A stretch of DNA of 11,708 nucleotides from Kofleriaceae bacterium (lineage in GTDB: Bacteria > Myxococcota_A > Polyangia > Haliangiales > Haliangiaceae), in the NCBI GenBank assembly GCA_050248555.1, contig JBFWSC010000003.1, positions 14,016-25,723 on the forward strand. Direction: 5' to 3'. Of this stretch, positions 5,995 through 9,092 are shown in pieces; the first letter of the stretch is position 1, and the number at the start of each line of letters is the position of its first letter. The notes below the pieces were generated by a model. The model did no database searches. It was not told where the DNA came from and saw only the letters and a program-made list of their open reading frames with translations. A program made the translations under genes and the position numbers.

Positions 5995-7812
5995 ATGGAC
6001 CAGGGTTGGGCGGAATCGAATCGCGCGGCGGTGCAGGCAGACCTCGCACGTGTCGTGCGCGAGCTCGACGGCGACGGCGACGTCGTCGAAGCGCCGTTCT
6101 CATCGCCCGCGCTCCACAGGCTCCAGCAGGTGTTTCGCCTCTCGACGTTCGAGACGCGCGTCGTGCTGCTATGCGCGGGATACGCGTTCGACGCGGCCGT
6201 CGCCACTACGCTCGGTACCCCGCTGACGTTCGCGCGTGCGTGCGCGAAGATCGCGGATCCGCACCTCGATGCGGTCTCGCCGACGCGTCCGTTGCGGTTG
6301 CATCGGCTCGTGCACGGCGGCGACAGCCTGCACGCGCCCCTGATGATCGACGAACGTATTCTGTTGTTCCTCCTCGGTGCGAACACGCTCGACGAGCGCC
6401 TCGTGGCCTATGCGTTCCCCGGCGACGCGAATCCCGGGGAGCTCACGCCTCCGCACGCGCGCGTCGCACGACGCCTCGCGGGATCGCTACGCGGTCTCGT
6501 GCAAGTGGTGGGTGCGCGACCGGCGACGAGACGCGCGCTCGTTCAAGCAGCCGCACGGCAGGCGACACTCGACGTGCTGCGCATCCCCGCGCATGCGCTG
6601 GCGCTCGCTCCGCGGGAGCTCGACACGCTCGCGCGGGTCTACGATCGCGAGGTTCTCCTCGGGAACGTCGTCGCGATGATCGAGATCGGCGACGACGACG
6701 GGCCCGAGGTACTTCGCGGCGTGAACGCGTTCGTCGATGCGACGACCGGTGCGGTGATCCTCGCGGCAGCACAGCCAACGAGCACGACCCGCACGTCGAC
6801 GCTCGTCGTGGAGGTGCCGTCGCTCGACGCCGGAGAGCGCCTCGCCGTCTGGACCGAGCGGTTCGACGGACAGATCGACAACAGGGAGCTCGCGCGCATC
6901 GCGCACCAATTTCGGCTGGAGCCATCCGAGATCGCAGAGCTCTCGCGTACCGAACCAACGGAGCTATGGAGCGCCTGCCTCGAACGCGCGCGGCCGCGAC
7001 TCGATGACCTGGCGAGGCGCATCACCCCGACCGCCGGATGGAACGACCTCGTGTTGCCCGAGTCCGCGGTCTCCCCGCTTCGGGACATCGTCGAGCAGCT
7101 CGCGCATCGACACGACGTTCACGAGCGGTGGGGGTTCGCGCGCGGCGAAGGTCGCGGCCAAGCGATCACCGCGCTGTTCTCGGGCCCGAGCGGCACCGGC
7201 AAGACGCTCGCCGCCGAAGTGATCGCGCGCGAGGTCAAGCTCGATCTCTATCATGTCGATCTCAGCGTCGTCGTCGACAAGTACATCGGCGAGACCGAGA
7301 AGCGCCTCCGCCGGATCTTCGACGCGGCCGAAGCGGGCGGCGCGATCCTCCTCTTCGATGAAGCGGACGCACTGTTTGGCAAGCGCGGCGAGATCCAGCG
7401 CGGCACGGATCGCTGGGCGAACCTCGAGGTCAGCTACCTCTTGCAACGCATGGAGAGCTATCGGGGGCTCGCGATCCTGACGACGAACGCGCGCGACGCA
7501 CTCGACAGCGCGTTCCTGCGCCGCCTCCGCTTCGTGGTGCCCTTCCCCTACCCCGATGTCGCGCAGCGCGTCGAGATCTGGCGGCGCGCCTTCCCACCGG
7601 ACGCGCCGACCATCGGCCTCGACGCCGAGCGGCTCGCGACGCTCCGGCTCACGGGCGCGAACATCAAGAGCATCGCGCTCTCCTCGGCGTTCCACGCGGC
7701 GGGTGAAGGCGCACCGATCGGGATGCGCCACGTGCTCCGTGCCGCGCGCGCCGAATTCGCCAAGCTCGAGCAGCCGTTCCCCGAGCGCGATGTCCAGCGG
7801 TGGCAGATCTAG
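5995..7812 (+). CDS. AAA+ ATPase: C-terminal Afp15/Pvc15-like (eCIS-associated type) ATPase module after an uncharacterised ~345-aa N-terminal region
   Basis: The ATG at 5995 is preceded by GGGAAG. An alternative in-frame GTG lies at 5968. The long upstream open frame 3859-5994 sits inside the RND gene and is an artefact. Walker A is GPSGTGKT (7183-7206). Walker B is ILLFDEADAL (7345-7374). The sensor/arginine region is ILTTNARDALDSAFLRRLRFVVPFPYP. The motifs YIGETEKRLRRIFD and NLEVSYLLQRME are characteristic, from memory, of the ATPase family encoded in Afp/PVC/eCIS loci and next to DUF4157 genes. The N-terminal 345 aa have no domain I can name. Stop is TAG at 7810-7812. Protein length is 605 aa. 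Confidence 0.85.
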   Translation: MDQGWAESNRAAVQADLARVVRELDGDGDVVEAPFSSPALHRLQQVFRLSTFETRVVLLCAGYAFDAAVATTLGTPLTFARACAKIADPHLDAVSPTRPLRLHRLVHGGDSLHAPLMIDERILLFLLGANTLDERLVAYAFPGDANPGELTPPHARVARRLAGSLRGLVQVVGARPATRRALVQAAARQATLDVLRIPAHALALAPRELDTLARVYDREVLLGNVVAMIEIGDDDGPEVLRGVNAFVDATTGAVILAAAQPTSTTRTSTLVVEVPSLDAGERLAVWTERFDGQIDNRELARIAHQFRLEPSEIAELSRTEPTELWSACLERARPRLDDLARRITPTAGWNDLVLPESAVSPLRDIVEQLAHRHDVHERWGFARGEGRGQAITALFSGPSGTGKTLAAEVIAREVKLDLYHVDLSVVVDKYIGETEKRLRRIFDAAEAGGAILLFDEADALFGKRGEIQRGTDRWANLEVSYLLQRMESYRGLAILTTNARDALDSAFLRRLRFVVPFPYPDVAQRVEIWRRAFPPDAPTIGLDAERLATLRLTGANIKSIALSSAFHAAGEGAPIGMRHVLRAARAEFAKLEQPFPERDVQRWQI

Positions 7813-9092
7813 TGGCGTTTCTCGACGACGGCGAAGCCATTGCCGTTCTTCACCGCGCGACGTAGCACCGCGAGAAAGCGCGCGACCGGATCCTTCGCGA
7901 CCGATTTCGGTGGATCGATGGCGAATGGCCACTCGGACTTCATGTGCCGATCGAGTAGCGCCACGAGCTTCGCAGAACCGCCATGCGTCTTCTCGAGCGC
8001 GTCGAATGCAGCGAGCAGCGCGCGCGCTTCGGTGGGCGAATAGAGATCGTCGTCCGTTCGGGACGCTGCGGGGAGCAACTCCAGCAACCGCCGGATGCTC
8101 TCGAGATCGCCGACGACTTGCGACTCCTCTTCGGTGACGACGACGTCATCGCTCAGGGCCACATCGATGGCCTGGAGCCGAAACTCGATCTTCTGGGCCT
8201 GCGCACTCCGGCGTGCGTTCTCGATCTCGTCGGCCGGTGCTTCGATGATTCGCAGTACGAGCGGAGTTCCTGCACGCGGGCCTAACCGGCGCTTCTTCGC
8301 GCGATTCTCTTCGACGAACGCATCCAGGCGTCGCATCGACTCTTCCGGGCTGACCACCTCGGGCTCGGGCTCGGGCAGCGGCTCCTCCTCGATGACCCAG
8401 AGGCCATCGCCCTCTCTCGCCTGGGTCAGGAGCTCGACGAGCTCGTCCTCGATCGGCCCTCGTCGCGACTTCTTGATCTTCGCCAACGTCGCCTCGACCG
8501 CCTCGCGAAGCTCGACCGGCGACCGTCCGTCAATCGCCTTGCCGGTCACGTCCTCCACCCGCTCCGTGAACGACTCCCACATAGCCCGCGCGCCATCGAC
8601 CTGGAGGTGGCGCGAGGCCGTCGCGCGCGTGCGAAGCTCGGGCTCCGAGGTGCGTGCCGGAGCGAGGTACATGCCGAGGCGCGCCAGCACGGGGCGTGGC
8701 GCTCGAGGCTCCTCTTGGAGCCAGAATCCTGCCGTCGCGTCGACGGGCTCGCGCAAGAACTCGGCGACCGCGGTGAAGAACGGCGTCCGCCTCGCGGCCG
8801 GCAGCGTCGAGAGCGCAGCCGTTGTGGCCTCGCGGCGCGCACGCGTCGACAGATCGTCCCAGCGCTTCTTCGTCGCGCGACTCACCAGCTCGACGACTGA
8901 GGTGATCGAGTCGGACCGTCCCGGGACCACGCGCGTCGCGATCGCCATGCGCGCGAGCCGCGCGAAGAGCTCGGCCTCGATCGCGTGGTGGTCCTCTCCG
9001 CTTCGCAGCGCCTCGAATGCTCGCTCGCCGAGCGCACCGAGTTCTGTGTCGTACGCGGGTGGAACGAGAAAGAGTCCGATGCGACGCACCAC
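7809..9092 (-). CDS. hypothetical acidic protein, 427 aa, translationally coupled to the upstream DUF4157 gene; candidate partner or immunity factor
   Basis: On the minus strand the GTG start at 9092-9090 overlaps the TAG of the DUF4157 gene (9094-9092) by 1 nt. Amino-acid composition is normal for coding sequence rather than the poly-Arg of wrong-frame ORFs. It has an E/P-rich linker (EEEPLPEPEPEVVSPEE). It contains the motif MRRLDAFVEENRAKKRR, which is also present in the toxin. Its stop (CTA at 7809-7811) overlaps the stop of the convergent ATPase gene. I recognise no known domain. Confidence 0.65.
   Translation of the reverse strand: MVRRIGLFLVPPAYDTELGALGERAFEALRSGEDHHAIEAELFARLARMAIATRVVPGRSDSITSVVELVSRATKKRWDDLSTRARREATTAALSTLPAARRTPFFTAVAEFLREPVDATAGFWLQEEPRAPRPVLARLGMYLAPARTSEPELRTRATASRHLQVDGARAMWESFTERVEDVTGKAIDGRSPVELREAVEATLAKIKKSRRGPIEDELVELLTQAREGDGLWVIEEEPLPEPEPEVVSPEESMRRLDAFVEENRAKKRRLGPRAGTPLVLRIIEAPADEIENARRSAQAQKIEFRLQAIDVALSDDVVVTEEESQVVGDLESIRRLLELLPAASRTDDDLYSPTEARALLAAFDALEKTHGGSAKLVALLDRHMKSEWPFAIDPPKSVAKDPVARFLAVLRRAVKNGNGFAVVEKRH
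8286..8336. repeat. copy 1 of a ~50-nt near-repeat encoding M-R-R-L-D-A-F-V-E-E-N-R-A-K-K-R-R within the 427-aa gene
   Basis: Plus-strand text is cttcttcgcgcgattctcttcgacgaacgcatccaggcgtcgcat. Compare cgcttcgcgcggttctcctcgacgaacgcgtcgagacgagccat at 10139-10189. About 40 of 47 nt are identical and the peptide is the same. Confidence 0.8.

Follow-up and report, generated by a model that had tools for sequence, protein, structure and literature searches.

We propose that p427, the 427-residue protein encoded in an 11,708-nucleotide stretch of Kofleriaceae bacterium DNA (contig JBFWSC010000003.1; the whole stretch is called the window here), is probably the cognate cytoplasmic immunity, or inhibitor, protein for the restriction-endonuclease-fold C-terminal domain of the adjacent 713-residue DUF4157 toxin. 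This reading follows from strict 3′ adjacency to this type of toxin, tight coupling, faster evolution, tandem duplication and survival beside decayed toxins, a combination classically seen with the immunity genes of polymorphic toxins (PMC3482391), and immunity neighbours have been experimentally confirmed for a few toxins of extracellular contractile injection systems (eCIS) (PMC8213781). In our model the TAG/GTG overlap would couple synthesis of p427 to that of the toxin. Inside the cell that makes both, p427 would bind to the nuclease-like domain and hold it inactive up to the moment when the injection machinery takes over the toxin, and it may further shield the cell when kin inject this toxin. 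The binding, the inhibition and the identity of the module that does the work are what we infer. The features on which the argument turns are as follows.

7809-9092, minus strand: p427 gene, candidate immunity protein and founding member of an unannotated family
9090-9094, minus strand: TAGTG junction, the 1-nucleotide stop/start overlap of toxin and p427
9095-9571, minus strand: toxin C-terminal restriction-endonuclease-like domain, residues ~555-713, presumed target of p427
10958-11167, minus strand: DUF4157/eCIS_core domain (PVC-metallopeptidase, HExxH), toxin residues 23-92 (Pfam; PMC8213781; PMC3482391)

The toxin and its conserved partner

The reading frame and junction described in the original prediction, which was made from the window sequence alone, are borne out. 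The same 427-residue product is present in Logan's gene calls and at NCBI, where it is assigned to a Kofleriaceae (Myxococcota) metagenome-assembled genome, and the GC content at third codon positions in its frame (0.81, beside 0.85 for the toxin and 0.84 for the convergent ATPase gene, in a window of ~69% GC) supports its being coding. The toxin stop codon TAG (9094-9092) shares one nucleotide with the p427 start codon GTG (9092-9090), which points to translational coupling of the two genes, and an AAGG lies 7 nt upstream of the GTG. Remote homologs begin at the equivalent position with MV(D/R)R(V/I)GLFLVP, as in MVDRVGLFLVPA, which supports the choice of this start.

In Pfam the toxin matches only eCIS_core/DUF4157 (residues 23-92, E 6e-22). 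Four full-length toxins align end to end, with E562/E563, D603, E617-V-K619-H620-W621, Q638 and R641-H642-N643 invariant, and the C-terminal domain carries the signature GEVKHWS...QL.RHN.G...LIDRVR*. The modelled domain has an alpha-beta-beta-beta-alpha-beta core with D on beta2 and (D/E)xK on beta3, and its structural neighbours are restriction-endonuclease-fold nucleases, which are the marks of the PD-(D/E)xK group; with moderate confidence we assign it as a putative PD-(D/E)xK-type nuclease. None of the Tox-REase Pfam models matches the toxin, and a Tox-REHH identity was rejected because the conserved R-x5-HE...H...H pattern is missing.

The original prediction proposed checking whether the gene pair is conserved across homologous loci. 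In all nine loci that carry the toxin C-terminal domain (the window and L005-L012) the toxin is followed directly, on its own strand, by a member of the partner family, so that at none of them is the partner absent or unlinked. Seven loci, window included, allow the distance from toxin stop to partner start to be measured, and it ranges from -4 to +19 nt. Genome and metagenome scans for the toxin domain added only three loci, and a scan of viral contigs for the domain gave none. The nine loci are arranged as follows.

Window: convergent AAA+ ATPase; toxin of 713 residues; partner p427, 427 residues
L005: decayed locus; toxin reduced to its nuclease domain, which continues in frame into a partner without its first ~65 residues
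L006: toxin lost, only its last 15 codons left (NDAISDFGGLIDRIR*); abutting an intact 299-residue partner
L007: eCIS cluster with Baseplate_J and Tail_P2_I; toxin of 758 residues, 49% identical over 683 aligned residues; partner P0004, 283 residues
L008: short contig; C-terminal end of toxin only; partner P0006, 328 residues
L009: short contig; C-terminal part of toxin; two tandem partner genes
L010: Kofleriaceae metagenome-assembled genome (MAG), same toxin/partner/convergent-ATPase layout; toxin of 731 residues; partner of 171 residues
L011: Kofleriaceae MAG, sheath gene nearby; 5′-truncated toxin; intact 168-residue partner
L012: sheath gene nearby; toxin of 737 residues; start of partner, cut by the contig end

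The association is as specific as it is regular. A hidden Markov model (HMM) scan of the fetched DNA found one partner locus beside each copy of the toxin domain (two tandem genes in L009), and at the L007 eCIS locus two other DUF4157 genes stand without a partner, only this toxin having one. The partner diverges faster than its toxin: of 21 locus pairs, 20 show lower identity for the partner than for the nuclease domain (means 38.6% and 50.2%), and the two identities are correlated (r = 0.57). It also outlasts the toxin. In L011 (4590-6441) a truncated AAA+ ATPase frame runs into a 5′-truncated toxin that keeps only the nuclease domain and is followed by the partner, with a phage-tail-sheath-like gene just upstream on the opposite strand; in L005 (1659-2786) the nuclease domain begins at an internal Met and is fused to the partner as P0005, with an unrelated 433-residue open reading frame ~120 nt upstream, and this locus looks like a decayed cassette. 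The partner is retained beside both nuclease-only remnants and beside the L006 remnant, and the nuclease is seen only with DUF4157 N-termini, never with another delivery scaffold. Orphan (L006) and tandem (L009) partner copies both occur, the latter (1129-2489) consisting of a 172-residue single-module form followed by P0007, a 279-residue protein with two N-modules and an unusually basic pI of 9.65.

Some points weigh against an immunity function. The toxin model is of low confidence, with a mean predicted local distance difference test score (pLDDT) of 56.9 from a two-sequence alignment, and a family of ~12 sequences makes for thin statistics. Retention of the partner beside 5′-truncated toxins is partly what would be expected of any 3′ neighbour, and as the toxin domain occurs only with DUF4157 N-termini, linkage to the toxic domain is inseparable from linkage to the whole protein. 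Finally, the in-frame fusion in P0005 is unusual for a toxin-immunity pair, though that locus is probably decayed.

The original prediction had offered, beside an immunity or inhibitor protein, a second effector delivered together with the toxin. An immunity or inhibitor role is the best reading given the conservation of the pair, and the co-effector, which we regard as very improbable, draws on the position of p427 next to a DUF4157 gene, a predictor of eCIS cargo (PMC11297309), and on the lack of a known function for p427. Cargo of this kind fits poorly with a family whose number of modules varies, which is tied strictly to one toxin domain while other DUF4157 genes go without, and which survives where the toxin has been lost. 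Nor does p427 itself resemble cargo: its N-terminus is structured in the AlphaFold2 model and forms a conserved beta-strand in the family alignment, with no disordered leader, it has neither an enzymatic motif nor a family match, and it has no transmembrane segment (maximum Kyte-Doolittle hydropathy 0.92). The structured N-terminus and the lack of a transmembrane segment also count in support of an immunity protein.

Modular architecture of the partner family

By sequence, p427 is the founding member of a new, unannotated modular family that lies outside every curated immunity family. As originally predicted, it has no recognisable domain: models from Pfam (even up to E = 10), NCBIfam, PADLOC and PHROGs gave zero matches. 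HMMER, run exhaustively over 1.84 billion cluster representatives, returned seven relatives (E 2.5e-54 to 6.5e-7), so that with p427 the family numbers eight representatives there, drawn from Kofleriaceae MAGs and metagenome assemblies; further members were read from DNA adjoining toxin homologs. Among the sequence searches only HMMER brought up relatives: word-indexed ones recovered nothing but the queries themselves, plus P0009, whether started from p427, from the toxin without its DUF4157 part or from the family alignment. In the PDB, sequence and profile searches gave nothing significant for the partner family, for the toxin domain or for the C-domain, and no curated immunity family (SUKH/SMI1_KNR4, Imm1-74, CdiI, PA2201) has a significant HMM match in p427. 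A single member, P0003, matches PA2201_N (E 0.0049, 17 bits vs a cutoff of 27), a predicted immunity domain catalogued for Tox-REase-1 toxins (Zhang et al. 2012, PMC3482391). Membership of PA2201_N was rejected, as the match is confined to one member, lies below the cutoff and is not reproduced by the family profile or by the C-domain profile against the PDB.

The family alignment defines an N-module of ~100-130 residues with an opening strand R[IL]G[VIL]F.VP and a closing G[LF]W[IV]..E, followed by an acidic proline-rich linker and a helix with the consensus VS.EES.R.LD....EE. Long members alone continue into a C-domain of ~150-155 residues that ends LRRAV...[GA]FA[VI]V and is missing from the 168-172-residue forms, which consist of a single N-module and the helix. 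The minimal family unit is one N-module, the acidic linker and one helix, standing alone in these short relatives, and two N-modules are present in both p427 and P0007. Within p427 the parts are placed as follows.

8709-9092, minus strand: N-module 1, residues 1-128, alpha/beta, first strand RIGLFLVPP and last strand GFWLQEE
8385-8684, minus strand: N-module 2, residues 137-236, ending in the family-invariant G230-L231-W232
8355-8384, minus strand: acidic proline-rich flexible linker, residues 237-246, EPLPEPEPEV, with pLDDT <50 at 240-245
8289-8354, minus strand: helix motif, residues 247-268, VSPEESMRRLDAFVEENRAKKR, first helix of the C-terminal region
7812-8273, minus strand: C-domain, residues 274-427, beta-alpha-alpha-beta, then four helices and a final strand, ending NGFAVV

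The two N-modules of p427 are internal duplicates (33% identity over 64 residues, E 1e-5). An AlphaFold2 model built on an eight-sequence alignment (pLDDT 84.7, predicted template modelling score 0.44) resolves three alpha/beta domains, at residues 3-127, 138-236 and 249-426, with two linkers of low confidence between them, and the low template modelling score fits domains that are independent of each other. On this model p427 would consist of three small alpha/beta domains in tandem, the two duplicated N-modules and the C-domain. Homology between the N-module and the C-domain was dropped, the two being alike only in the order of their secondary structure (hhalign E 0.24). The structure prediction and Foldseek screen for known immunity folds, recommended from the outset, produced nothing in the PDB with E <0.97. 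In fold the modelled modules sit with small alpha+beta proteins, of which two work by attaching to the surface of a protein, a likeness that is not evidence of membership. These are YfbM (DUF1877, PDB 1ryl), for which no function is known, DMP12 (PDB 3w1o) and CdiI-E479 (PDB 5j4a); none has a sequence match to p427, and Foldseek fails to recover them.

This architecture accounts for a size that had been called unusually large for an immunity protein, since two N-modules of ~100-130 residues and a C-domain of ~155 take the place of the one module in the 168-172-residue relatives; tandem domains, and not DNA mimicry, are thus the source of the length. Mimicry had been suggested on account of Glu/Asp-rich stretches, and p427 does contain the quoted strings, EEEPLPEPEPEVVSPEE and VVVTEEESQVVGDLES. 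The description of the protein as acidic was overstated: it has a pI of 5.80 and a net charge of -5.6, with 16.6% D+E vs 15.2% K+R, and the only clearly acidic part is the linker and helix at residues 233-272 (pI 4.7). A DNA mimic would be a special case of immunity, in which an acidic surface fills the DNA-binding cleft of the nuclease. As acidity is mild and is not conserved across the family (pI 4.7-6.1, with one member at 9.65), p427 falls short of strongly acidic mimics such as DMP12 and Ocr-like proteins, and we consider this form of inhibition quite unlikely.

A helix shared by toxin and p427

The p427 helix has a counterpart in the middle of the toxin, immediately ahead of a hydrophobic stretch.

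10142-10207, minus strand: toxin copy of the helix motif, residues 343-364, APEIAMARLDAFVEENRAKRRV
9965-10060, minus strand: conserved, strongly hydrophobic transmembrane-like segment, toxin residues 392-423, GAAVAATLPFVLFLSMFAVEGPVDLLLAITPV, Kyte-Doolittle hydropathy 2.09

Residues 247-268 of p427 and 343-364 of the toxin are identical at 16 of 22 positions, and the DNA is 82% identical over 44 nt. Recent gene conversion is unlikely to be the sole source of the likeness, as the identical core LDAFVEENRAK differs by four synonymous changes between the two genes. A more extensive homology of the partner to the middle part of the toxin was likewise rejected, since only a 29-column helix aligns in a profile comparison (E 0.012, probability 3.5%). 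The toxin copy sits just upstream of the hydrophobic segment, which could itself serve as a membrane-insertion or translocation element.

Scoring of helix similarity in a matrix of cognate and non-cognate toxins and partners sets the window pair apart as an outlier, with a score of 78 vs at most 29 for the window toxin with other partners and at most 31 for p427 with other toxins. For the L010 toxin helix the highest scores are those with the partners of L010 (38) and L011 (40). The L007 toxin helix finds its best match in P0005, which has the nuclease domain nearest to that of L007, and not in its own partner, and L009 gives no helix signal. Co-variation of the helix across loci is thus partial. 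It may reflect homotypic helix pairing, a common docking tag or repeated small conversions.

It is with this helix that the principal alternative to immunity has to be weighed, namely that p427 is a chaperone or loading adaptor which maintains the solubility of the toxin, perhaps by covering the transmembrane-like segment, and presents it to the AAA+ ATPase and the eCIS without inhibiting it, a role like that of the Eag and DUF4123 adaptors of type VI secretion systems. Such a role would suit the position of the hydrophobic segment directly after the helix that p427 copies, the status of N-module and helix as the conserved family core, the probable eCIS-type AAA+ ATPase that is the convergent neighbour in the window and in L010, and the lack of recognisable immunity genes for most eCIS toxins (PMC8213781, PMC3482391). 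What it explains poorly is the intact partner in L011 and L006, loci whose toxins no longer have an N-terminus, motif helix or hydrophobic segment. Furthermore, p427 has no Pfam match to the known effector chaperone and adaptor families (DUF1795/Eag, DUF4123, DUF2169), the helix similarity is strong in the window only and moderate in one clade, and divergence faster than that of the toxin is the usual signature of an immunity protein. On balance we judge an adaptor unlikely, and retain the immunity protein as the reading that best fits the loci.

Were p427 an immunity protein, the shared helix might act as a common handle, either through pairing of the immunity protein with the toxin or through recognition of both by the adjacent eCIS AAA+ ATPase; as the toxin enters the injection tube, this ATPase would then strip the immunity protein from it. 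We regard this as a speculative and improbable extension of the model. If true, it would provide a mechanism for resolving the toxin-immunity complex before eCIS loading and help to explain why eCIS immunity genes have been elusive; more generally, the helix shared by toxin and partner could bear on how cargo and immunity protein are separated at loading.

Over the C-terminal half of the toxin (window 9001-10000) the GC content is 0.60-0.62, vs 0.65-0.73 elsewhere in the window, and this dip would fit a horizontally exchanged toxin cassette.

Related systems and genomic setting

In presumed mode of action the closest known systems, together with the few eCIS toxin-immunity pairs, are the CdiA-CT/CdiI pairs with PD-(D/E)xK DNase toxins (Y. 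pseudotuberculosis YPIII, PDB 4zqu; E. coli EC869 o11, PDB 4g6u). The window pair differs from these in that delivery would rely on a DUF4157/eCIS-type N-terminus and not on a type V secretion system, in having no sequence similarity to those toxins or to CdiI, and in the three domains and 427 residues of p427. The eCIS toxin-immunity pairs, such as the EAT5 RES-like toxin and its antitoxin (Geller et al. 2021, PMC8213781), and the PVC-metallopeptidase toxins (Zhang et al. 2012, PMC3482391) share the build of the window toxin, in which a long linker runs from the N-terminal DUF4157 to the toxic C-terminal part; as with these, the genes here lie at or near eCIS clusters (L007, L011, L012) as a conserved adjacent pair. 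Unlike them, for most of which no immunity gene is identified, this toxin has a conserved partner, from a family that is unannotated. In carrying tandem immunity modules on one polypeptide and occurring as tandem genes (p427, P0007 and the L009 pair), the family resembles the multi-domain, or polyimmunity, proteins and tandem immunity genes known from polymorphic toxin systems (Zhang et al. 2012, PMC3482391), but the known cases use SUKH, SuFu or Imm66-69, and the repeat unit of p427 is a new module.

DUF4157-marked toxins of eCIS and Photorhabdus virulence cassettes (PVC) are numerous and mostly lack an identified immunity gene, an open puzzle in both large surveys (PMC8213781, PMC3482391). 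On this question of missing immunity the locus bears as a clean, conserved and testable toxin-partner pair. Its restriction-endonuclease-fold domain is also outside the 2012 list of PVC-delivered toxins, as none of the ten Tox-REase families in that catalogue was recorded with PVC delivery (PMC3482391). If p427 does confer immunity, it would represent a new immunity family and lend support to an antibacterial role for these myxobacterial eCIS. The direct reach of the finding is limited, as the family is very rare and known only from MAGs and metagenomes.

The gene that follows the pair lies downstream of p427.

5995-7812, plus strand: convergent AAA+ ATPase with an N-terminal winged-helix domain, 605 residues

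Its stop codon and that of p427 overlap in a CTAG palindrome (7809-7812). The AAA module matches IetA/IteA models and CDC48-type ATPases, and the protein is probably an eCIS-type ATPase. The layout of toxin, partner and convergent ATPase is repeated in L010, where the ATPase (7578-9392, minus strand) is 54% identical. No eCIS structural genes are found within 10 kb upstream of the window toxin, unlike in L007, L011 and L012. Longer assemblies of this locus (L001, 2043-7821) show upstream of the toxin a DUF4132 gene and a 1575-residue reading frame that ends 13 nt before the toxin start and has no match in Pfam, PHROGs or PADLOC. This frame, of which the window holds 11247-11708 (minus strand), overlaps the DUF4132 gene, and the four genes may form an operon. 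At the other end of the window (28-5929, plus strand) lie a hybrid histidine kinase/response regulator and then a resistance-nodulation-division (RND) efflux pair, made up of an HlyD-type membrane fusion protein and a 1043-residue pump, all of which appear unrelated to the toxin module.

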